From Vulcanimicrobiota bacterium (GTDB taxonomy: Bacteria > Vulcanimicrobiota > Vulcanimicrobiia > Vulcanimicrobiales > Vulcanimicrobiaceae), in assembly GCA_027306785.1 (NCBI GenBank), contig DAHUZB010000025.1, positions 3,783 to 67,782 on the forward strand: 64,000 nt of DNA. The letters are read 5' to 3'. Every line of letters begins with the position of its first letter. The first letter of the stretch is position 1. Position numbers and translations under genes: made by a program. The notes under the pieces were generated by a model, which had not been told where the DNA came from, ran no database searches, and saw only the letters and a program-made list of their open reading frames with translations. This document shows, piece by piece, positions 826-51,263 of the stretch.

Positions 826-2073
826 TTACAGATCGTGTTCGCCGGGATCGTAATAGCGACGGCCTCGCAGATTGTCGGGGAGATTCTCTTGCTTCACGCC
901 GTAGTCGTCGTGCGCATAGTGATAGTCGCGACCGTAGCCGAGCTGCTTCATCAAGCCGGTCGGCGCGTTGCGTAGATGCATCGGCACCGGATCGTTGCGG
1001 GTCTCTTGCACGTCGCTCATCGCGGCCTTGTAGGCGCGTCCCACGCTGTTGCTCTTGGGCGCCTTCGCGAGATAGAGCGTCGCGTGCGAGAGCGGGTAGA
1101 ACCCTTCGGGCATCCCGACGAAATGCACGGCCTGCTGCGCGGCGATCGCGACTTGGATCGCCTGCGGATCGGCGAGTCCCACGTCTTCGGAAGCGAGAAT
1201 CACGAGACGGCGCGCGAGAAAGAGCGGCTCTTCGCCCGCGTCGATCATGCGGGCGAGCCAATAGATCGCCGCATCGGCGTCGCTTGCGCGAATGCTCTTG
1301 ATGAATGCGCTGATCGTATCGTAGTGCCCGTCGCCGCCCTTATCGTACGTGGAGCCGCGCTTTTGCAGTGCCTCCATGACGTGCCGACGATCGATCGCGC
1401 GTGCACCGTCGATCTCGGGTGCCGCATCGGCCGCAAACTCGAGGGCCGAGAGCGCGAAACGCGCGTCGCCGTTGGCGTAGCCGATCAGCGTCTCGCGCGC
1501 GTCGGGATCGAGCCGTACGTGCATCCCGCCCAGACCGCGCTGCGGATCGGCGAGCGCGCGATCGACGAGCGCACCGATCTCGTCATCGCCGAGCGCTTTG
1601 AGCACGAAGACGCGTGCGCGGGAGAGCAGCGCGGAGTTCACTTCGAACGACGGATTCTCGGTGGTGGCGCCGATCAGCGTCACCGTGCCGTCCTCGACGT
1701 ACGGCAAAATGGCGTCTTGCTGTCCCTTGTTGAAGCGGTGGATCTCGTCAATGAAGAGCACGGTGCGCCCGCCCACACGCTTGCGCCCCTGCGCCTCCCC
1801 GACGACGCGCCGCAGATCGGCCACGCCCGCGCTCACCGCGGAAACCTTCTCGAAGTGCGCGCCGGTGGAACGAGCGATAATCTCGGCGAGCGTGGTCTTG
1901 CCGGTGCCGGGCGGACCCCACAGGATCATCGACGGGATGCGATCGCTCGCGATCGCGCGGCGCAGCGCACGCCCTTCGCCGACGATCTCATGCTGCCCGA
2001 CATACTCTTCCAGCGTGCGCGGGCGCATGCGGGCGGCGAGAGGCGCTTGCGGTTCGCCGAAGAGCGAGTCCAT
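826..2073 (-). CDS. rarA: Replication-associated recombination protein A (AAA+ ATPase)
   Basis: 415-aa ORF with Walker A motif GPPGTGKTT and an N-terminus (RPRTLEEYVGQ) typical of RarA/MgsA. Confidence 0.9.
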   Translation of the reverse strand: MDSLFGEPQAPLAARMRPRTLEEYVGQHEIVGEGRALRRAIASDRIPSMILWGPPGTGKTTLAEIIARSTGAHFEKVSAVSAGVADLRRVVGEAQGRKRVGGRTVLFIDEIHRFNKGQQDAILPYVEDGTVTLIGATTENPSFEVNSALLSRARVFVLKALGDDEIGALVDRALADPQRGLGGMHVRLDPDARETLIGYANGDARFALSALEFAADAAPEIDGARAIDRRHVMEALQKRGSTYDKGGDGHYDTISAFIKSIRASDADAAIYWLARMIDAGEEPLFLARRLVILASEDVGLADPQAIQVAIAAQQAVHFVGMPEGFYPLSHATLYLAKAPKSNSVGRAYKAAMSDVQETRNDPVPMHLRNAPTGLMKQLGYGRDYHYAHDDYGVKQENLPDNLRGRRYYDPGEHDL

Positions 2074-2078
2074 CGACG

Positions 2079-2761
2079 TTACGGCGCAGACGAAGGCGTC
2101 GGCTGCGGTTTGCGCTTTTCGAGCGGGTTTTTGATGATGATCGGCTTCGGCGTGGCGAAGTGCGGATTGACGTTGCTCGGGAACTGCATCACTACATTGC
2201 CCTCGGCATGCGCCTGCCCCGAGACGGTGTTGTAGAGCACGTGATCGGCCGTCATGTGACGGTCGCCTTGATTGATATGCACGTTGCCGGTGAGATCGAG
2301 CTCGTGCGTCGTATCGTTCAGCACGCCCTTTGCCGCATCGACGGTGGTATCGGCCTGCACGTAATGCACGTTGCCGGTCGCCGTATACACCTTGGCGGTC
2401 CCGTCGATCTGCACTTCGTCGGCGGTGAGCGTAGCAGGCCCGCGTGACTGCGACGGTTTCACGCTCGAGAGTCCGGCGAAGTTGCCCTGCGCATCGTGCA
2501 TCACCACGTGACCGTAGAGATGCATGATCTTGCTCTTGTAGTTACCGTTCGAACGATCGGCGGTGATATCGCCGCCGTCACGCGTCATCGTCACGCGGTT
2601 CGGCGTGCTGAACTCGCCGGTTTTAAAATTGGCATCGACCGGTGACGTGTTGATCGTCCAGACGCCGACCTTGAACGACGGCGGCGTGGCCGAGGACGGC
2701 GACGGCTTCGGTGTGGCGCCGAGGAGCGCGGCGGCGGCGGCGAGAGCGATGAGCGGGCGAA

Positions 2762-2765
<4 letters not shown>
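2079..2765 (-). CDS. LptA/OstA-like periplasmic protein
   Basis: Signal peptide followed by repetitive beta-strand sequence (..ADHVLYNTVSGQAHAEGNVVM..) typical of the OstA-like fold. Confidence 0.55.
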
Positions 2766-4403
<1,638 letters not shown>

Positions 4404-4450
4404 CTACGAAATATTGCGATAAACGATAGATGATGACGTGATGAGAGGCG

Positions 4451-5806
4451 TCAGCTCGCGGCCGAGCTCACGTGCGGATACTCCCGCGTATCGGAGAGTC
4501 CGCCGGGTTCCACGAGCGGGATCACGCCGCTCGAACGCTGCACCTGCGCGCCCAGTTCCGAGAGCATCTCTTCGAAGCGGTAGTAGCCGCGATCGATGTA
4601 CTCGAGCCCGATGATCTCGGTCTCGCCCGCCGCCGCGAGGCCCGCGACCACGAGCGCGGCGCCCGCACGAATATCGGGCGCCTCGACCGGCGCGCCGGAG
4701 AGCTGCGCCACGCCCTTGACCACCGCGGTATTGCTCTCCATCGAGACGCGTACGTCGGCACCCATGCGCGCGAGTTCGTTCACGTACGAAAAGCGCGCGT
4801 TGAAGATCGATTCTTCCACCACGCTGTTGCCCGGCGCGGTGCAGAGGTATGCGACCATCTGCGGCTGCAGATCGGTGGGAAAGCCCGGATACGGTGCGGT
4901 GAGAATATCGGTGCCGCCGGTGATGGTGCTGCCGTCGACGCGAATCCAATCGTCGCCGAAGGTGAGATCCACGCCGCACTCCTGCAGCTTCACCATGAAC
5001 GCTTCGAGATGGCTCGGATTGCACTTCGTTACGGTGACGTCGCCGCGCGTAACCGCGCCCGCGACGAGCAGCGTGCCGGTCACGATACGATCCGGAATGA
5101 TCTCGTACTCGACGCCGTGCAATTCTTCCACGCCTTCGATGGTGACGGTGTCGGTGCCGAGCCCGGTGATCTTCGCGCCCATCGCGTTGAGGAAGTTGCC
5201 GAGATCGATCACCTCGGGCTCCATCGCGACGTTCACGATCGTGCTCGTACCCTCGGCGAGCACCGCGGCGAGCATGGCATTCTTCGTCGCACCGACGCTC
5301 GGCAGGCGAAACTCGATGCGCGCACCGTGCATACGCCGATGCTTGGATTCGGCGATCAGGTAGCCGTGCGCGTTGCGCACGTCGCAACCGAGTGCGATGA
5401 ACGCTTGCTCGTGCATGTCGGTCGCGCGCGTTCCCAAAATGCAGCCGCCGGGCAGCGGCACTTCGGCGCGCCCGAAGCGCCCGAGCAGCGGACCGACGAT
5501 ATCGAACGAGGCGGCGAGCTTACGCACGAGGGCGTACGGCGCGCGATAGGACGCGACGTTGCTCGAATCGATCGTGACCGTGTTGTCGCCTTCGTAGCGG
5601 ATGCGCGCGCCGAGCGCTTCGAGCAGCGACCACATAACCGAGACGTCGGTGATACGCGGCACGCGGTGCAGCGTGACCGTACCTTTGGCGAGCAATGCGG
5701 CAGCCATGATCGGCAACGCGGCGTTCTTCGCGCCGTGCGTTGCGACCGAGCCTTCCAAACGGGCGCCGCCGCGCACCCGCAACGTGGTCTCCAGACGATC
5801 GAGCAT
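4451..5806 (-). CDS. murA: UDP-N-acetylglucosamine 1-carboxyvinyltransferase
   Basis: The conserved MurA sequence begins at MLDRLETTLRVRGGARLEGSV.., which is the internal Met of the 504-aa track ORF (ATG complement 5804-5806). The Arg/Ser-rich upstream extension looks like a non-coding read-through. Confidence 0.9.
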   Translation of the reverse strand: MLDRLETTLRVRGGARLEGSVATHGAKNAALPIMAAALLAKGTVTLHRVPRITDVSVMWSLLEALGARIRYEGDNTVTIDSSNVASYRAPYALVRKLAASFDIVGPLLGRFGRAEVPLPGGCILGTRATDMHEQAFIALGCDVRNAHGYLIAESKHRRMHGARIEFRLPSVGATKNAMLAAVLAEGTSTIVNVAMEPEVIDLGNFLNAMGAKITGLGTDTVTIEGVEELHGVEYEIIPDRIVTGTLLVAGAVTRGDVTVTKCNPSHLEAFMVKLQECGVDLTFGDDWIRVDGSTITGGTDILTAPYPGFPTDLQPQMVAYLCTAPGNSVVEESIFNARFSYVNELARMGADVRVSMESNTAVVKGVAQLSGAPVEAPDIRAGAALVVAGLAAAGETEIIGLEYIDRGYYRFEEMLSELGAQVQRSSGVIPLVEPGGLSDTREYPHVSSAAS

Positions 5807-43998: not shown

Positions 43999-45273
43999 CT
44001 AGCCCTGCTCTTCGCCGAGAGCGGCCGCAAGGTCTCCCGCACGGCCGAGCGGGATGCGGCGATCGGTGCGGGCTTCGAGATCGCGCAGCACCACCTCGCC
44101 CGCGGCGAGCTCGTCGCTGCCGAGGATGAGAGCGTAGCGCGCGTTATTGCGGTCGGCGGCTTTGAGATGCGCGAGCAGCTTGCGATCCTCGTAATCCATG
44201 AAGACCGGCTGCGCGAGGATGCGACGGAGCTCGGTCGCAAGCGGCACGAGCACGCCGCGCGCCTGGGCGCCGAGTGCGATCGCCTGCACGCCCGCGCGGG
44301 GCGCGACCGCATCGCCGTGCAGCGCGTCGAGCATCATCAAAAAGCGTTCGATGCCGAGCGCGAAGCCGACCGCGGGCGTGGCGGGGCCGCCGAGCGAGCT
44401 CACGAGCCCGTCGTAGCGGCCGCCCCCGCAGACCGTGGATTGCGCGCCGAGCGCGCCCGAGATGATCTCGAAGACGGTGCGGGTGTAATAGTCGAGTCCG
44501 CGCACGATCTTCGGGTTCACCACGTACGGAATGTTCGCCGCATCGAGGTAGGCACGCAGCGCGCCGAAGTGCGCGCGGCAGCCGTCGCAGAGAATCGATT
44601 CGAAGGTCGGCGCCGTTTCGACGAAGGGGCGATCGCGATCGTCTTTGCTATCGAGAATGCGCAGCGGATTGCGCTCCAAGCGGCGCTGCGAATCGGGCGA
44701 GAGCGCGTCGAGGTGCGGACGGAAATGCGCGAGCAGCGATTCGCGATAGCGCGGGCGGCACTCGTCGTCGCCGATGGTGTTGATGTTGAGCACCGCGTCG
44801 TCGATGCCGTGCGAGCGCACCAGCTCCCACGCAAGCGAGATCACCTCGAAATCGGCCTCGGGACCGACGAATCCGGTGCACTCCACGCCGAACTGATGTG
44901 CTTGGCGATAGCGTCCCTTCTGCGGGCGCTCGTAGCGGAAGATCGGGCCGACGTAGTACCAGCGTTGCGGACCCTGCGCGAAGAGCTTGTGCTCGAGCGC
45001 GGCGCGCATCACCGGCGCGGTGAATTCGGGACGCAGCGTGATGCTGCGCTCGCCCTTGTCGAGAAATGTGTACATCTCTTTCTCGACGATGTCGGTGGTT
45101 TCGCCGACGCCGCGCACGAAAAGCTCGGTCGATTCGAAGATCGGCGTGCGAATCTCGCCGTAGCCGAAGCGACGGGCGAGATCGTGAATGCGGCGTTCGA
45201 GCGCGAGCCAGCGCGCCGAGATCGGCGGCAGAATATCTTGAGTGCCGCGCGGTGCGGTGATGTGTGACGACAT
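43999..45273 (-). CDS. hisS: Histidyl-tRNA synthetase
   Basis: APRGTQDILP, RGLDYYT and GGGRYD motifs. The start is set at MSSHITAPRGT (ATG complement 45271-45273). Confidence 0.93.
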   Translation of the reverse strand: MSSHITAPRGTQDILPPISARWLALERRIHDLARRFGYGEIRTPIFESTELFVRGVGETTDIVEKEMYTFLDKGERSITLRPEFTAPVMRAALEHKLFAQGPQRWYYVGPIFRYERPQKGRYRQAHQFGVECTGFVGPEADFEVISLAWELVRSHGIDDAVLNINTIGDDECRPRYRESLLAHFRPHLDALSPDSQRRLERNPLRILDSKDDRDRPFVETAPTFESILCDGCRAHFGALRAYLDAANIPYVVNPKIVRGLDYYTRTVFEIISGALGAQSTVCGGGRYDGLVSSLGGPATPAVGFALGIERFLMMLDALHGDAVAPRAGVQAIALGAQARGVLVPLATELRRILAQPVFMDYEDRKLLAHLKAADRNNARYALILGSDELAAGEVVLRDLEARTDRRIPLGRAGDLAAALGEEQG

Positions 45274-45313
45274 GGGCTTCTCCCGGGTTCGCACGGCGCG
45301 GCGCTAATCCTAG

Positions 45314-46468
45314 ATGCGCGCGCGGTGCGCGGGATGGAATGGTATGCGACCTACGATCTACGTCGCCGCCGTGCTCGCCCTTTTCGCCTTTGCGCCGGAA
45401 ACCGCACGCCTGGTGCTGGTCGCCGCCGCGGGCATCCTGATCGAGAGCCTGCCGTACCTGGCCGCCGCGGCGGCGCTGCGCCCGCGGCTCGGCCGCCATG
45501 CGCCCGCGCTGCTGGCCTACGCCGGATGCGGCTGCACGCCGGGACCGAGCGCCCGCAGCCTCCCCGCCGCCCTCGCCTGCACGCTGCTCTTCGGCCCGTG
45601 GGTCGCGCTCGGCCGCGTGGCCCTCGGCACCCTTGCCGCCCGCCTGCCGAGCCCGCATGCCTGCGAGCATGAGCACGCCGACGATCTCGCCGCCGAGCTG
45701 CTGGGGCTCGCCCCCGCGGCGCTGCTGGCGGCCGGGGTGCTCGCGGCCGCGCCGCTGCTCGACTTGGGGCACCGCCCGGCGGCGCTTGCGATCCTGGCCG
45801 GCGCGGCGCTCGGCCTCGGCGCGGGCCCCTGCGCGCTCGGCACGGTCGCGCTCGCGGCCACGCTGCGCACGCAATCGCCGCTCGCCGCCTTCGCCGCGCT
45901 CGCCTGCGGGGGCATGGTCGATCTGCGCCGCTTCGCGCCTCGACTGCCGCGAGCGCCCGGCGGCGGCCTCGCCTATGCGCTGTTGGCCTGCGTCTGCGGA
46001 CTGGTCGCGCTACGGCACGGGGGCGGCATCGTGCATCCGCGTCTCGTGCTGCCGCTCGGCGCGTGCGCCGTGCTCTGCGTCGCGGCGGCGCTGCGCGCGC
46101 GGCGCGCGGAGCGCCCGCACGCCGCCATCGTCGCCGCGGCGCTGCTCGCAGCGGTGGTCGTAGGCGCGCCATTGCCGGTCTATCGGGCAAGCGAAACCAC
46201 GCTCGCCGACGCCTTCGCGGGCGAGCATCTGCGCTTTACCGGTGTCTATCACGCGCAGCCGCATGCCGCGCTCGTGCGCTTCGCGATCACCTGCTGTCGC
46301 GCCGATGCGCATCCGGTCGCGGCGCTGCTGGCATCGCCGGTGCACGCGCGCGATCGCACCTGGCTGCGCGTACGCGGCGTGCTCGCACGACGGGGCGACG
46401 CGCTCGTGCTGGTGCCCTCGCACGTGCAGGCGATCGCGCCGCCGAGCGATCCATTCGTCTACGAGTGA
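45314..46468 (+). CDS. Membrane permease-like protein with a C-terminal DUF1980/TIGR03943-like CC-x-AD domain
   Basis: Multiple TM segments, a CGC motif, and the C-terminal FAITCCRADAHPV, which resembles the YcgQ/TIGR03943 signature. The start could be ATG 45344. Confidence 0.5.
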   Translation: MRARCAGWNGMRPTIYVAAVLALFAFAPETARLVLVAAAGILIESLPYLAAAAALRPRLGRHAPALLAYAGCGCTPGPSARSLPAALACTLLFGPWVALGRVALGTLAARLPSPHACEHEHADDLAAELLGLAPAALLAAGVLAAAPLLDLGHRPAALAILAGAALGLGAGPCALGTVALAATLRTQSPLAAFAALACGGMVDLRRFAPRLPRAPGGGLAYALLACVCGLVALRHGGGIVHPRLVLPLGACAVLCVAAALRARRAERPHAAIVAAALLAAVVVGAPLPVYRASETTLADAFAGEHLRFTGVYHAQPHAALVRFAITCCRADAHPVAALLASPVHARDRTWLRVRGVLARRGDALVLVPSHVQAIAPPSDPFVYE

Positions 46469-46481
46469 GCGCTACGTGCCG
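46454..46481. repeat. 28-bp direct repeat, left copy (TTCGTCTACGAGTGAGCGCTACGTGCCG)
   Basis: Identical at 28 of 28 positions to 48123-48150. It spans the last four codons and stop of the 45314-46468 gene and a minus-strand GT-stop. Confidence 0.9.
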
Positions 46482-46554
46482 GGCAACCGGTAGCCGCCCA
46501 AGCCGTTGATGATGCCGCGCAGGCGGACGGCAAGACTCGTATTGCGGCCGAAGC
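46482..46554 (-). pseudogene. Decayed 3' fragment homologous to the DUF5916 outer-membrane gene
   Basis: It encodes ..TRSFGRNTSLAVRLRGIINGLGGYRLPGT*, compared with ..TRTFGRNTSLAVGLRGINGMGGYGLPGT.. at 48289-48358. Identity is roughly 85-90 percent by eye, with one 3-nt indel. It lacks the 138 nt that follow in the intact gene. Confidence 0.65.
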
Positions 46555-47074
46555 TTCTAGTATATTTTTGCGAAATCCGGCGAGAGATCAGCCAAAATCG
46601 CATTGCCCATGGTGCGTATCGGCCGCAACGGGCGCCCTGCGGTAACCGCATCTTCGGGCGACAGCGTCGTCCACATCGATGCACGTTTAACATCTTGAGA
46701 CCGCAACGGTCGCGACGGCATCACAACACGAGGACAATTGCTACAATTGTGATCGAAAACGTCAGTTAAAGCGTTTTCGCTCAGTCGACTTTTTCACGGG
46801 CCTGCTAGGTCAGGCTAGCCGCATTGGTACCGGCGATGTCTCTTCGTGTCAGGCACTCCGCAGGATTCCACAGAATAATAATGGTAGCGACGCCGCGGGT
46901 GGTCGGGCACGATGCGATGTTATCTTCATAACGTGGAACCGTCGTTTCTCTATGTTCGCTCGCGATGTGGCGCAATTCCGCTGGCACCGCTGGCGCCGTC
47001 AGAAACAGTTTCCGTCTCCGCATTACCCTGAGCCCATCTGGCATTTTCAACTTTCTTGAAGGTGAGATTTTTGA

Positions 47075-47314
47075 ATGGACTTTGAAAAGGCTCTGGTTCA
47101 ACGCAGCAATCGGCGTGCGTTTCTCTCAGCACTCGGCGTAGTCTCCCTTGCAGGCTGCGCCGGAAACGCAACCATGTTATTACCGTCACATCTCAAGAGA
47201 GATATTATTCCGATCCAGCCGGTCATCGGCGGCGGCACTGGGACTGGCGGAACAGGTTCAAACTTGCCGTCCAACTTAGCGACGCTGTCGAACGCGGAGA
47301 TCGCCCCGCTCTGA
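47075..47314 (+). CDS. N-terminal part of a split gene: Tat-like signal, lipobox, Gly/Thr linker, first LxxAxIxx repeat
   Basis: MDFEKALVQRSNRRAFLSALGVVSLAGC.. with AAGGTGA 8-9 nt upstream. The ORF stops at a TGA (47312-47314) in the middle of a repeat motif. Confidence 0.5.
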   Translation: MDFEKALVQRSNRRAFLSALGVVSLAGCAGNATMLLPSHLKRDIIPIQPVIGGGTGTGGTGSNLPSNLATLSNAEIAPL

Positions 47315-47472
47315 CTCGGGCGCAGATCGCGGCCCTAAGTAACGCACAGATCGGATCTCTAGCAGACACCCAGCTCGGTTACGTTACGGCGGCGTCTGCG
47401 TTCCATGGCTCTCAAGCGTCGGCTTTTTTCAAGCGTACCGTCGAGAGCCAATCGGTAGCCCCTCCATTCAAG

Positions 47473-47847
47473 GTGCCGCCTGGAGCTTCCGGGGGCAATA
47501 TCTCCCCGTATGGCTATCAGCCGCCAATGCAGGGCAGTGATTGGTGGGAAGTCGTCGGCTCCACCATCCTGGGCGCGGTCGGCTCTACGGTCGGCTCGGC
47601 ATTCGGCGGAACGGTTGGGGCATATCTCGGCGGCGCTGCCGGCGGACTCCTCGGAACATTTTTGTTTTCGGGCCAAGATGCCCAATTCTGGTTCTTCGAT
47701 TCAAACGTCGGATACTATGACTTCATTGACCTTGGAAATTGGCAGACGGTTCAGAACGTCGTGGGCTGGGACAGTGACGGTTATACCATTGGCGGTTCCT
47801 TCGACCCTAATTCGAACACCGTCACCGTTACAGTAATTGCCAATTAA
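47473..47847 (+). CDS. C-terminal part of the split gene: glycine-zipper membrane segment plus C-terminal domain
   Basis: The track ORF starts at GTG 47473 without a Shine-Dalgarno sequence. However, the frame is open back to 47086 with no ATG, GTG or TTG. From 47311 that frame encodes LTRAQIAALSNAQIGSLADTQL, which continues the repeat of the upstream ORF. Confidence 0.5.
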   Translation: MPPGASGGNISPYGYQPPMQGSDWWEVVGSTILGAVGSTVGSAFGGTVGAYLGGAAGGLLGTFLFSGQDAQFWFFDSNVGYYDFIDLGNWQTVQNVVGWDSDGYTIGGSFDPNSNTVTVTVIAN

Positions 47848-47872
47848 CGACAAGCTCTGAAGGGGTGAAAGC

Positions 47873-48052
47873 GTGCGGAAACGGCAACTCATCGAGGCTG
47901 CAGCATTACTTGGGGCGCCATGGATAGTCGCTCTCGCGCTGTGGTTGGCGTTTAGAAGCGCACCGATGGCAATTGGCACATTTTGCGGTGTGGGTATCTA
48001 TGCCGCCGTGCGCCTCGTCATGCTGTCCAGGCATGCTCATAATGGATCCTGA
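47873..48052 (+). CDS. Small two-TM membrane protein (59 aa, below the ORF-track cutoff)
   Basis: My translation from the GTG at 47873 is VRKRQLIEAAALLGAPWIVALALWLAFRSAPMAIGTFCGVGIYAAVRLVMLSRHAHNGS*. GAAGGGG lies 8-9 nt upstream. It is 25 nt downstream of the glycine-zipper gene. Confidence 0.4.
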   Translation: MRKRQLIEAAALLGAPWIVALALWLAFRSAPMAIGTFCGVGIYAAVRLVMLSRHAHNGS

Positions 48053-48088
48053 ACGAGAACCCTGTATTACCGATATTATCGTTCATTC

Positions 48089-48125
48089 GTGAGGCCCGGG
48101 ATTATATCTCGGGTCTCACTTTTTC
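48089..48125 (+). terminator. Rho-independent terminator closing the islet transcription unit
   Basis: GTGAGGCCCG-(11-nt loop)-CGGGTCTCAC (one G-U pair) followed by TTTTT. Confidence 0.55.
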
Positions 48126-48150
48126 GTCTACGAGTGAGCGCTACGTGCCG
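48123..48150. repeat. 28-bp direct repeat, right copy
   Basis: Identical to 46454-46481. It overlaps the stop codon of the DUF5916 gene. Confidence 0.9.
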
Positions 48151-50279
48151 CTCTCGCCGCCCGCGTGAAAGACGAACTTCACGATGAAGCGGTTGAGCGT
48201 CGCCGCCGCCGCGGGCGTGCCGTATTCCACGTAGAGCTCATCGAGGTTCACGAAGCGTTCGTGGAACGAGAGCGCAAGATTCGTACCGGGCAGCCCGTAG
48301 CCGCCCATCCCGTTGATGCCGCGCAGGCCGACCGCGAGACTCGTATTGCGGCCGAAGGTGCGCGTGAGGGAGAGACTGCGGTACCACTGCGAATCGAGCG
48401 GCGGCGCAAGCGCGTTCATCGCGTGCTCGATGTTGCCGTTGAACGCGACGGAGATACCGTAGCGGCCGAAACTGCGCGTCGCCGAGATACCGGGCTGCTG
48501 CAAATAGACCGGCTGCCCCGCGCCGTTAGCGAACGGCCCCCAATTGTAGGTTGCGTCGATCGGCGAGGGCGTGCCGTCACGATAGCCGAGCGCCAGCGAT
48601 TGCGCGTTGAACGGCAGAACGACCGCCCCTTGATAGAAGGGATACGCGGCCGTGTAGACACGCAATTCGCTCGTCGAGACCCCGTACGTGAACGAGAGCT
48701 GATCGTCGAACGTGCTCGTGAGATTCGCAAACACGTCGGACTGATGTGCAGCGCCCGATCGATCGACGAAACGATCCGCTCCCGCGAGCACCTGATACGA
48801 TTTTACGCCGTGCCGTCCGCTACCGCTGTACTGCACGTAGATCTGCGGGCCGCGCACGTCGTTCTCGGTAATGTACGCATCGACCGGCGCGTACTCGGGC
48901 CCGATGTCTTGGTATTTCGCGAGCGCGAGCCAATGCGAGGTCTGCACTCCCGAGCCGATTTGAAAGTCACCGCCCTGCGCGGGATCGCTCACGAGCGTGC
49001 CGCGTTCGAATTGATACTTCGTGAGCGCGAAGAAGCCGCTGTGCGGATTGGTCGTCGCGATCGCGCCGCCGAGCATACGATCGCTAAGGCCGGTATGCTG
49101 CGCGTCCACGCCCTGAAAGGCGTACGTGAACGCGTTGTCCGGCGTGTTTACCTGGTAACCGAACGCGCTGTCGTTGAATCCCGGTCCGCCTGCGTTGAGC
49201 GCACCGATCTGCGCGTGCCCCTGCGTGCCCTCGAATTTGAAGCCGCGGTCGAAAATGCCGATGTTCGGCGAATAAAAAGGGATATCGGCCGAGTTGATAT
49301 TCACGCCGGGCAACGAGTTGAGGTACTGCGCACCCTGCGAGAAGAACGGGCGGTACTCGTTATACTGCCGCTGGAACTCCTGCGGAGCGATCGTCGTCTG
49401 ATCTTGCTCGACGTTCGAGAAATCGGGATTGAGGGTACCCACGAACGAAAGCGTGTTGGTCACCGGCACGGTCACATCGACGCCGAGTGTACGCTGTTTG
49501 GTTTGTACGAACTGTCCCACGCCGTCTTGAAAGAGTCCCCGATCGGTTCCCGCGGCGCCGAGCGTGTAGATGTCGGCTCGCGCCTTCGGGCGCGCGGCAT
49601 GCTGCGAGAGGCGTAGGCCGGTGAGTTCCGGCCAAAACTGCGAAGAACCGATGTCATTCATCGTGGGCTCGTAAGCCCACGTATACTCCTCGCTCTTCGC
49701 CGCGATGAGGCGCGCCACGTTTACCTGCCACGAAACCACGCCGCCGTTCGAGCGAATGTCCTTGAGCGGGATGATCATCATCGCGTTCCAGTCGCCGTTC
49801 GGAAGCACCGTCGCCACGCTCTTCCAACTCGGCGCATAGCGCGCGTTCTCGCTCGAGTACTCGTCGTGGATGCCGTGCGGATTCACGCGAAACTGGTAGA
49901 CGCGCGAGCCCGATCCCGATGTCTCGAAATTGAGGGCCACGTGATCGTCGCTTCCGATGCCGGCGTGATCGACCGTCTGCGCCGCCGTGATCGGAATGCC
50001 GCGCTGCTCGCAATGGACCGCGAAGTACAGGTTCTTATCGTCGTACAAGAGGTACGCCACGGTCGCGTGACGCGCGGCGCGGTGATCGGTGAAGTCGTAG
50101 AAATGCGCGAACGTCGTCGCGCTCTTCCACTGCGGCGCGGTGAGCGAGGCGTCGAACGGTGGCGGTGCCGATGCCTTCACCGCGGGGACGGAGGCCGAAC
50201 GCGGCACCCATGCGCGCGCGGGCGCCGCAGTGAGTGCCGCAATCACGGCCAGGAATATGCATAGCGGTACGCGAGCCAT
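48141..50279 (-). CDS. DUF5916 / CBM9-like outer-membrane protein
   Basis: Signal peptide, an N-terminal carbohydrate-binding-like domain (YLLYDDKNLYFAV), the motif LNPDFSNVEQDQ, and a long beta-rich C-terminus. Confidence 0.75.
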   Translation of the reverse strand: MARVPLCIFLAVIAALTAAPARAWVPRSASVPAVKASAPPPFDASLTAPQWKSATTFAHFYDFTDHRAARHATVAYLLYDDKNLYFAVHCEQRGIPITAAQTVDHAGIGSDDHVALNFETSGSGSRVYQFRVNPHGIHDEYSSENARYAPSWKSVATVLPNGDWNAMMIIPLKDIRSNGGVVSWQVNVARLIAAKSEEYTWAYEPTMNDIGSSQFWPELTGLRLSQHAARPKARADIYTLGAAGTDRGLFQDGVGQFVQTKQRTLGVDVTVPVTNTLSFVGTLNPDFSNVEQDQTTIAPQEFQRQYNEYRPFFSQGAQYLNSLPGVNINSADIPFYSPNIGIFDRGFKFEGTQGHAQIGALNAGGPGFNDSAFGYQVNTPDNAFTYAFQGVDAQHTGLSDRMLGGAIATTNPHSGFFALTKYQFERGTLVSDPAQGGDFQIGSGVQTSHWLALAKYQDIGPEYAPVDAYITENDVRGPQIYVQYSGSGRHGVKSYQVLAGADRFVDRSGAAHQSDVFANLTSTFDDQLSFTYGVSTSELRVYTAAYPFYQGAVVLPFNAQSLALGYRDGTPSPIDATYNWGPFANGAGQPVYLQQPGISATRSFGRYGISVAFNGNIEHAMNALAPPLDSQWYRSLSLTRTFGRNTSLAVGLRGINGMGGYGLPGTNLALSFHERFVNLDELYVEYGTPAAAATLNRFIVKFVFHAGGESGT

Positions 50280-50321: not shown

Positions 50322-50723
50322 CTACGAGAGGCTGTCGCGCTTGCGGTGCTCCAGCACCTCGACGGGGATGCCGTTCGGATCTTCGATGAAGGCGATCGCG
50401 CGCGTCCCGCCGGGCGACTTGTAGACGTCTTTGAGGATCTTCACGCCCTTGCTCTTCAGATCGGCGATGTACGGTTCGAGATCGCCGTCCGCTTCGATCG
50501 CGAGATGCTCGTAGCGATTCCCGAGCGCATACGGTGGATGCTCCTCCAGATCGTACACGAGTTCGATGTACGCGTTCCAATCATGCCCGACGAACGCCAT
50601 GTCGGCATTCCCGGGATAGTGATATGGCCCATCGAGCAGTTTCAGCCCGAGCTTCTTGGTATAGAACTCGATCGACTCGTCCATGTTATTGACGAAGATC
50701 GACGTATGTAAAAAGCGTGGCAT
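50322..50723 (-). CDS. VOC-family protein (glyoxalase I-like)
   Basis: The start is set at MPRFLHTSIFVNNMDESIEFYTKKLGL (ATG complement 50721-50723). It has a typical paired beta-alpha-beta-beta-beta pattern and ..GIPVEVLE. Confidence 0.8.
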   Translation of the reverse strand: MPRFLHTSIFVNNMDESIEFYTKKLGLKLLDGPYHYPGNADMAFVGHDWNAYIELVYDLEEHPPYALGNRYEHLAIEADGDLEPYIADLKSKGVKILKDVYKSPGGTRAIAFIEDPNGIPVEVLEHRKRDSLS

Positions 50724-50873
50724 CCGAGTTTCCTTTCCCGCAGAGCATGTGCTTCGACAACGGTTATAGACCAAGCCCACCCCTAGACGGATGCACGCGA
50801 CCGAACAGATGTCTTCTCGTTCCGCCCCGGCATCAGACACGAATGCGCGCTTGGGCTTTATGGATGGGTCTTC

Positions 50874-51263
50874 TTGCGACAATCGATGCTTCTCACATGG
50901 TTTCAAACGAGCATCCTCGGGAGGACGCTAGCCCGCCTTGCGGCACTCGGGAGCGGGGCCGTGGCAGCGTTTTCGCTCAACCTCACGGCGAGCGATGTCT
51001 ACGCCCACACGTGGTCATCGAGAGACCGATGGCTCGTCGCGCTGATCGCGGCTTTGCTCGTCGTCAACCTCGTCGGCACGGAGGTGCTCCGTCGGCTCTC
51101 CGATGACCTCGATGACATGCGGCGTCGAGAAGCATTCCTCGCCATCGCAGCCGAACACGCAAAGTATCTGCAGGATGCCGGGCGGCAGGGCCGGACGCAG
51201 GTCGTCGAAGACGGGTTAAAAGTGCTAGACAAGCTCTACCGGCGCGCCAAGAGAAAGAAGTAG
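50874..51263 (+). CDS. Hypothetical two-TM protein with a charged helical C-terminal domain
   Basis: 129 aa. The hydrophobic segments are ILGRTLARLAALGSGAVAAFSL and WLVALIAALLVVNLVG, followed by ..DDLDDMRRREAFLAIAAEHAKYLQD..KRKK. I do not recognise a family. Confidence 0.4.
   Translation: MRQSMLLTWFQTSILGRTLARLAALGSGAVAAFSLNLTASDVYAHTWSSRDRWLVALIAALLVVNLVGTEVLRRLSDDLDDMRRREAFLAIAAEHAKYLQDAGRQGRTQVVEDGLKVLDKLYRRAKRKK

Follow-up and report, generated by a model that had tools for sequence, protein, structure and literature searches.

A frameshifted glycine-zipper lipoprotein gene and its intact two-helix membrane partner: a candidate toxin/immunity pair in a small island of a Vulcanimicrobiota genome

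The stretch of DNA analysed here, a window of 64,000 nucleotides (nt) from a Vulcanimicrobiota bacterium (contig DAHUZB010000025.1), carries two small adjacent genes, one for a lipoprotein with a glycine zipper and one for a protein with two transmembrane (TM) helices. The question that this locus raises is whether the two form a functional pair and whether, as the original prediction for this DNA had proposed, the pair consists of a membrane toxin and its immunity protein. We found that the first gene is a frameshift pseudogene of an exported lipoprotein, that it lies beside an intact second gene and that both sit in a small foreign, horizontally acquired island between two host genes. Judging from the homologous loci, the pair is a genuine and previously unannotated two-gene membrane module which recurs in about a dozen soil-bacterial lineages. 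The leading hypothesis, unproven, sees the lipoprotein as a toxin that permeabilises membranes and the small protein as its immunity factor, and we give it a probability of roughly 0.4.

Neighbourhoods were recovered for 13 lineages with the lipoprotein gene (loci are designated below by L numbers and proteins by P numbers). In 11 of these, namely the window, L001, L002/3, L005/6, L007, L008, L009, L010/11, L014, L017 and L018/19, a homologous two-TM open reading frame (ORF) of 57-80 codons was found on the same strand, 3' of the lipoprotein gene, either overlapping its stop codon or placed up to 299 nt after it. The small proteins share a first helix that ends with W-x-L-[FT]-[RHG]-[NSK], a loop of about five residues and a second helix that begins with [IL]-G-x-F-x-G, a GxxxG motif. 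Both of their termini are basic and, by the positive-inside rule, both ends are therefore likely to be cytoplasmic. A survey of homologue neighbourhoods had been suggested as a check on the proposed pairing, and it bears the pairing out, the small gene being homologous between lineages and co-inherited with the lipoprotein gene. Moreover, a homologous small ORF starts 17 nt after the gene of P0048, a protein of 695 amino acids (aa) described below. Since the small ORF also follows this gene, the partner is tied to the shared C-terminal part and not to the lipoprotein signal.

In the window the small gene is placed as had been predicted, 25 nt after the lipoprotein stop codon, with its own GAAGGGG site in front and a terminator-like hairpin behind (Table 1). 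Its product had no match in Pfam, PHROGs or PADLOC, and in most assemblies the small ORF was never called as a gene. The divergence of the small protein and that of the C-terminal module of the lipoprotein were compared and gave no signal of co-variation. A third gene, encoding 156-190 aa, was observed 3' of the small ORF in L001 (1656-2135), L010 (3868-4440), L014 (1370-1840) and L015 (839-1318), and is absent from the window. A single TM helix at the N-terminus of its product is combined with a helical domain that contains cysteine, and searches of Pfam, PHROGs and PADLOC again gave no match.

The lipoprotein family is rare and had not been annotated before. A word-indexed search of 5.8 billion proteins returned only two relatives, and an exhaustive profile search of 1.84 billion representatives yielded about 20 clusters, made up of about ten full-length lipoproteins (248-271 aa), about ten C-terminal fragments and the single protein P0048. 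One of the fragments, P0011, is the truncated ORF of the window itself, in the form in which a public assembly has it. With the C-terminal profile, the word-indexed search returned the window's own fragment alone, glycine-rich words having saturated the candidate list. A metagenome scan with a three-sequence alignment found one locus, and no relative was found among the viral contigs of IMG/VR. Searches of Pfam, NCBIfam, PHROGs and PADLOC with both proteins and with the products of the neighbouring genes gave nothing informative.

The lipobox, [LVA][AS][GA]C, is kept in every full-length homologue. The family also conserves the motifs FHG-x-QA and PP-x-Y-x-P-x-x-PGS-x-FW, a zipper with a GGP or FGG turn mid-way and, towards the C-terminus, D-A-x-F-x-F-[WY]-N-S, D-x-D-G-[YF]-x-V-x-G-[ST]-[FY] and the terminal N-T-V-T-[IV]-T-V-[IV]-x-N. 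In most members a pair of cysteines follows the lipobox and in several a further pair lies inside the C-terminal domain, which suggests that both ends of the mature lipoprotein face an oxidising compartment, as a helical hairpin predicts. P0048 has neither signal peptide nor lipobox and its N-terminal 400 aa are different; what it has in common with the lipoproteins extends from the repeats through the proline linker and the glycine zipper to the C-terminal domain. It is the only protein found to carry the C-terminal part on another scaffold.

In the window the repaired lipoprotein would be 257 aa long. Its N-terminus is MDFEKALVQRSNRRAFLSALGVVSLAGC..., with a Tat-like (twin-arginine translocation) NRRAFL, within SNRRAFLSA, in the signal peptide and the lipobox LAGC, of which the Cys28 codon occupies 47156-47158. 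The signal peptide is followed by a Gly/Thr linker and the first 8-residue repeats, all encoded by the 5' part of the pseudogene, and the 3' part contributes the remaining repeats, the FHGSQA helix, the Pro-rich linker, a WW motif, the glycine zipper and the beta domain, in this order. The zipper is a glycine-rich hydrophobic segment of 43 residues in which seven glycines stand in i+4 register (G-x3-G six times), and the family signature TVTVTVIAN closes the C-terminus. The description of an exported lipoprotein with a lipobox, a glycine zipper and a separate C-terminal domain was thus correct. The proposal of a Tat signal fared less well: the family conserves R-[RK]-x-F-[LI], and a twin arginine, as seen in the window, occurs in four of 11 N-termini, but five have R-K, two a single R, and no Tat model exceeded its threshold (TIGR02811, E=0.17; PF10518, matching one member at E=0.078).

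The 8-residue repeats are of the ALTTAQ type (PF20080), a profile matched by 11 of 16 family members (best E 3.8e-07) and by the window copy below threshold (16.9 bits vs 26.4). Several hundred further matches of the profile search, up to 4,335 aa in length, share only this repeat. These proteins, typically of 500-4,300 aa, carry RTX, Ig, beta-propeller or cyclophilin domains, and because of these associated domains the repeat can be regarded as a generic module of secreted and surface proteins. The family profile also gave a match, in its repeat region, to HeliScrew4, a designed 8-mer helical solenoid (crystal structure, PDB 9zem), at E=5.7e-17, and a short rigid spacer fits the stretch seen in the lipoprotein. 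The HeliScrew preprint calls this structure type novel, and a full-text literature search found no paper in which ALTTAQ is mentioned; the designed repeat may have its natural counterpart in this family.

The frameshift that splits the repeats lies at a short run of C's. The lesion is a net +2/-1 change, because the intact homologues have one residue fewer at the join. Frame 2 (the -1 frame) is open from before the TGA at 47312-47314 through the TAA at 47845-47847, and intact homologues align across the site. The Logan assembly of SRR10333326 (L013), which is also public, is 100% identical over 5,714 nt and has the frameshift base for base, so that it is not the artefact of one assembler, although both assemblies may share the same reads. 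The suspicion that the gene is already inactivated was therefore justified. Programmed frameshifting was considered and rejected, since the homologues all read in a single frame and no slippery sequence is conserved at the site. We consider it improbable that the organism has an intact gene and that the frameshift arose at the C-run through an error in base calling or in the consensus. Such an error would agree with a single length change within a run of four C's and with two halves that are otherwise open and conserved, but the two assemblies, even if possibly made from the same reads, were produced with different software and are identical here, independent decay events are found elsewhere in the family, and short C-runs are not known to be prone to error on common short-read platforms.

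Both genes of the pair belong to an inserted island whose GC content (55.9%) is lower than that of its flanks (65-69%). At third codon positions the island genes have a GC content of 0.57-0.62 and their neighbours one of 0.81-0.87. An exact 28-nt direct repeat, TTCGTCTACGAGTGAGCGCTACGTGCCG, adjoins the island at either end. Because this repeat holds the stop codons of both flanking genes, the junction as it was before the insertion can be restored with single-base precision: once the 1,641 bp are removed, the convergent DUF1980-type and DUF5916 genes end 3 nt apart. Neither an integrase nor terminal inverted repeats were found in the island, a scan of it with Rfam gave no match, and no DNA similarity was found between the island and the other loci. 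Just inside its left end lies a relic of the DUF5916 gene, and the 131 nt that separate the corresponding piece of that gene from the right repeat are absent on the left. The relic may derive from the target gene as it existed in the donor, or it may have arisen by partial duplication and a subsequent deletion.

The surrounding genes of the window are housekeeping genes, among them those for HisRS, PurH, SMC, a glyoxalase and a heptosyltransferase, the last of which argues for a diderm envelope with lipopolysaccharide. We observed that the DUF1980-type permease gene (window 45250-46250) has 75-80% GC and a strongly negative AT skew, far beyond the rest of the window. The cassette has a glyoxalase/VOC-family gene nearby both in the window (50322-50906, minus strand) and in the unrelated locus L002 (1633-2022), probably by coincidence.

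Table 1. Features of the island, of the two genes that it carries and of the adjoining host genes (window coordinates).
Feature	Position	Strand	Remarks
DUF1980-type permease gene	45314-46468	+	
Left copy of exact 28-nt direct repeat	46454-46481	.	holds last codons and TGA of the DUF1980-type permease gene
Inserted island, 1,641 bp	46482-48122	.	low GC; both genes of the pair inside
Relic fragment, 72 nt	46482-46553	-	matches 48282-48357, an internal piece near the 3' end of the DUF5916 gene, at 86-93% identity
Shine-Dalgarno-like GAAGGTGA	47058-47065	+	precedes the start codon of the lipoprotein gene; seen by direct reading
Lipoprotein pseudogene, 5' part	47075-47314	+	frame 0, ATG 47075 to TGA 47312-47314, 79 codons
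8-residue ALTTAQ-type helical repeats (L-S/T-x-A-Q-I-x-x)	47264-47397	+	four to five; split by the frameshift
Frameshift site GCCCCG	47303-47308	+	C-run; net +2/-1 relative to intact homologues
Lipoprotein pseudogene, 3' part	47308-47847	+	frame 2, ending TAA 47845-47847
Glycine-zipper two-helix hairpin DWWEVVGSTILGAVGSTVGSAF / GTVGAYLGGAAGGLLGTFLF	47539-47667	+	turn at FGG; GGP turn in homologues
C-terminal region, about 59 aa	47668-47844	+	aromatic-rich; four beta strands predicted (low-confidence models)
Shine-Dalgarno-like GAAGGGG of the small ORF	47859-47865	+	
Intact 59-aa two-TM gene	47873-48052	+	GTG start; two hydrophobic helices, basic termini, GxxxG in TM2
Intrinsic-terminator-like hairpin	48089-48124	+	14-bp stem and T-run; right end of the island
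Right copy of exact 28-nt direct repeat	48123-48150	.	the DUF5916 gene ends within it (last codons and stop, CTA 48141-48143)
DUF5916 gene	48141-50279	-	

The pair has decayed independently four times, in the window, in L015/L016, in L004 and in L012. In the window the lipoprotein gene is frameshifted and the small ORF intact. L015 and L016, which come from two different samples and sequencing runs, are 99.7% identical to L001, and in them a deletion of 811 nt (L001 618-1428) removes the lipoprotein gene exactly and joins its first codons (MDKES) in frame with the small ORF, giving the 65-aa protein P0153. L004 and L012 have lost the small gene and are considered below. As these events run in both directions, each gene can survive without the other.

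Many loci show signs of mobility. There are rve transposases in L005 and L018/19, and a resolvase, a phage-type integrase and an excisionase-like helix-turn-helix protein among the neighbours of L010/11. Positions 1-55 of the L001 contig are a tRNA gene cut at its 5' end (Rfam RF00005, 40.7 bits), and the start of the cassette is about 550 nt further downstream, a location at which islands would typically integrate; no complete tRNA gene was found adjoining the cassettes, the truncated one at the start of L001 being the only case. L004 belongs to a Candidatus Acidiferrales genome bin (DATJRM01) and is about 95% identical to L002. Next to its cassette we observed a ribonucleotide reductase gene (981-5648, minus strand; 1,555 aa) with an apparent intein-like insertion that extends from ...SACLPHHALISTPDG... 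to ...VVHNCF...

If the lipoprotein is a toxin, a possible course of events can be outlined. The lipoprotein would be exported by Tat or by the Sec pathway and lipidated at Cys28, and its glycine-zipper hairpin would enter the cytoplasmic membrane from the periplasmic side, where the hairpins would oligomerise through their GxxxG faces and the membrane potential would be dissipated. The small protein would be embedded in the inner membrane, its two termini facing the cytoplasm, and its GxxxG helix would pack on the hairpin and block oligomerisation. The Tat route is a possible one and would make sense mechanistically, since a hydrophobic hairpin could in this way cross the membrane and escape insertion by Sec, but the twin arginine is not conserved. 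In the window there would then be a dead toxin gene beside a retained 'orphan' immunity gene.

Several features of the homologous loci lend this toxin/immunity reading plausible support. The pairing is tight and conserved in 11 of the 13 lineages, and the partner follows the C-terminal part onto the scaffold of P0048. Lipobox, repeats, zipper and C-terminal signature are shared by the intact homologues, the cysteine pairs point to an extracytoplasmic location, and the GxxxG of the partner's second helix suggests direct helix packing with the zipper. The mobile and patchy distribution with its fast turnover is also consistent with a toxin, as is the ratio of nonsynonymous to synonymous polymorphism (pN/pS) of about 0.5 between the lipoproteins of L004 and L002. 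Moreover, there are two cases of an orphan partner, and in L015/L016 the in-frame fusion preserves the expression signals.

Other observations weigh against a toxin. The small gene has been lost beside an open lipoprotein gene in two lineages, which is unexpected for an immunity gene, although the loss is one at the locus and a second copy elsewhere in the genome would change its reading. In L004 a clean deletion of 324 nt removes the small ORF while the lipoprotein ORF is open to the contig end and retains the family motifs, and L012 lacks both the small ORF and the following 156-aa gene that are present in its relative L014, its lipoprotein P0008 being intact with all family motifs kept. If the toxin acts in cis or is delivered by siblings, such losses should be lethal. 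In the Cdz glycine-zipper system, by comparison, deletion of the immunity gene cdzI is not possible as long as the cell has the toxin (PMC5380434). No similarity to a known toxin or immunity family was detected with Pfam, NCBIfam, PHROGs or PADLOC, and no secretion or delivery system (type I, VI or VII secretion, or contact-dependent inhibition) was found in the window or at the related loci, so a lipid-anchored protein would have no obvious route to another cell. A conserved N-terminus with swapped C-termini was not seen either, as all C-termini are homologous and the identities of N- and C-terminal parts are similar. The models of the protein are also of low confidence: two AlphaFold2 runs, with alignments of 16 and 20 rows, reached a mean confidence score (pLDDT) of 53.6 and 51.2, both predicting a helical hairpin followed by four beta strands. 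Of the original claim, the conserved pairing stands, and the assignment of toxin and immunity roles is the part that stays tentative.

The arrangement of a lipobox, a two-helix zipper and a beta region is, besides, also the layout of the non-toxic SlyB/YfgH lipoproteins. A somewhat less probable reading than the toxin, but one to be taken seriously, is that the protein is a non-antagonistic envelope lipoprotein of the SlyB/YfgH/OsmB type, whose hairpin is embedded in a membrane, oligomerises and organises or stabilises domains of lipid and protein, and that the two-TM protein is its accessory or docking partner. SlyB, YfgH, OsmB and YiaD are known as outer-membrane-stabilising glycine-zipper lipoproteins (bioRxiv 10.64898/2025.12.22.696046), and the toxin LXG-T2 was itself modelled on SlyB (PMC12955049); since glycine zippers are found both in stabilising lipoproteins and in membrane-damaging toxins, the motif alone does not decide between these roles. 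The loss of either gene without the other is what one would expect of a dispensable complex, and, as in SlyB, YfgH, OsmB, Pcp and the 17-kDa antigen, the lipobox is followed by a two-helix GxxxG hairpin and a beta-rich region. The beta strands of SlyB, however, flank the hairpin on both sides, whereas here the beta region is wholly C-terminal and a spacer of about 120 aa (repeats and a proline-rich stretch) is added. Membership in the SlyB/17-kDa-antigen family, which the original prediction had named as an outcome that would speak against its toxin, is not established. The weak matches to Pfam PF05433 'Glycine zipper 2TM' (E=0.0023, 18.3 bits vs a cut-off of 24.2) and PF13488 (E=0.0086, 16.4 bits vs 25) remain below the gathering scores and are seen at E<0.1 in only two of 16 family members, and profile comparison with SlyB by hhalign was negative (12% probability over 10 columns). 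Foldseek against the PDB gave nothing significant; SlyB (7ojf_A) came at ranks 1 (E=0.88) and 7 (E=1.5), over 117 columns with 20-21% identity, but because the models are of low confidence these results are unusable as evidence. SlyB-type genes are core chromosomal genes that are not known to have a dedicated small membrane partner, whereas the family described here is rare, island-borne, often close to transposases or integrases, frequently decaying and paired with a conserved two-TM gene, a gene which also follows the C-terminal part onto the different protein P0048.

Much less probable is that the pair is cargo of a mobile element acting on the envelope of the host, either in surface or superinfection exclusion or as a lysis pair of a unimolecular spanin-like lipoprotein and a holin-like two-TM protein. 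The neighbouring mobile-element genes and the island in the window would suit such cargo, a lipid anchor, a rigid spacer and a second membrane segment could bridge both membranes, and the small partner would have the size and topology of class II holins. Nevertheless no endolysin or phage structural genes were found nearby, IMG/VR, PHROGs and PADLOC gave no matches, and the hydrophobic segment, a hairpin with a folded domain after it, is not a terminal anchor. What probability remains beyond these three readings we assign to an unknown function.

Should the toxin reading be true, glycine-zipper pore formers could be deployed via the ordinary lipoprotein pathway, the search for interbacterial weapons could be widened in soil phyla that have been little studied, and a minimal two-gene system would be at hand for the neutralisation of a glycine-zipper pore by a GxxxG helix in the bilayer. 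We are more doubtful of the broader proposal that this is the first family of lipid-anchored, Tat/Sec-exported glycine-zipper toxins, neutralised in the membrane by a GxxxG two-helix immunity protein and spread as mini-islands among soil bacteria without a specialised secretion system. On the SlyB-type reading, this would be the first lipoprotein of that kind to be mobile and to have an inner-membrane partner of its own. The window copy is a pseudogene, which limits its direct importance; on either reading two unannotated protein families and their conserved pairing are defined.

The proteins with which this family can be compared differ from it in instructive ways. With the ALTTAQ proteins (PF20080) and HeliScrew it shares the four to five L-[ST]-x-x-Q-[IV]-x-x repeats in the N-terminal half of the lipoprotein, but the ALTTAQ proteins are giant secreted or surface proteins and here the repeats form only a short spacer stretch. 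The SitA proteins of Myxococcus are reportedly polymorphic lipoprotein toxins with nuclease domains, delivered by outer-membrane exchange that needs TraAB. Entericidin A/B is a lipoprotein toxin/antidote pair of peptides of about 45 aa, in which the antidote is itself a lipoprotein. The family has no homology to either of them, but the likeness lies in lipid-anchored toxins with adjacent antidotes, often on mobile DNA.

A closer parallel is offered by the glycine-zipper toxins. In Caulobacter, CdzC/D are neutralised by CdzI, a small inner-membrane protein encoded alongside (PMC5380434), and LXG-T2-Imm2, Tse4 and TspA-TsaI are further membrane-damaging glycine-zipper toxins with adjacent membrane immunity proteins (PMC12955049). 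With respect to CdzC/D-CdzI, Tse4-Tsi4, Ssp6-Sip6, TspA-TsaI and LXG-T2-Imm2, the family has no detectable homology, it has a lipoprotein signal (Tat-like or Sec) in place of type I, VI or VII secretion, it adds a helical-repeat spacer and a C-terminal beta domain and, in contrast to what is seen with cdzI, two of its lineages retain the lipoprotein after loss of the partner gene. What it has in common with all of these pairs is an extended GxxxG zipper in a hydrophobic segment, a gene for a small multi-pass inner-membrane protein directly downstream and a patchy distribution.

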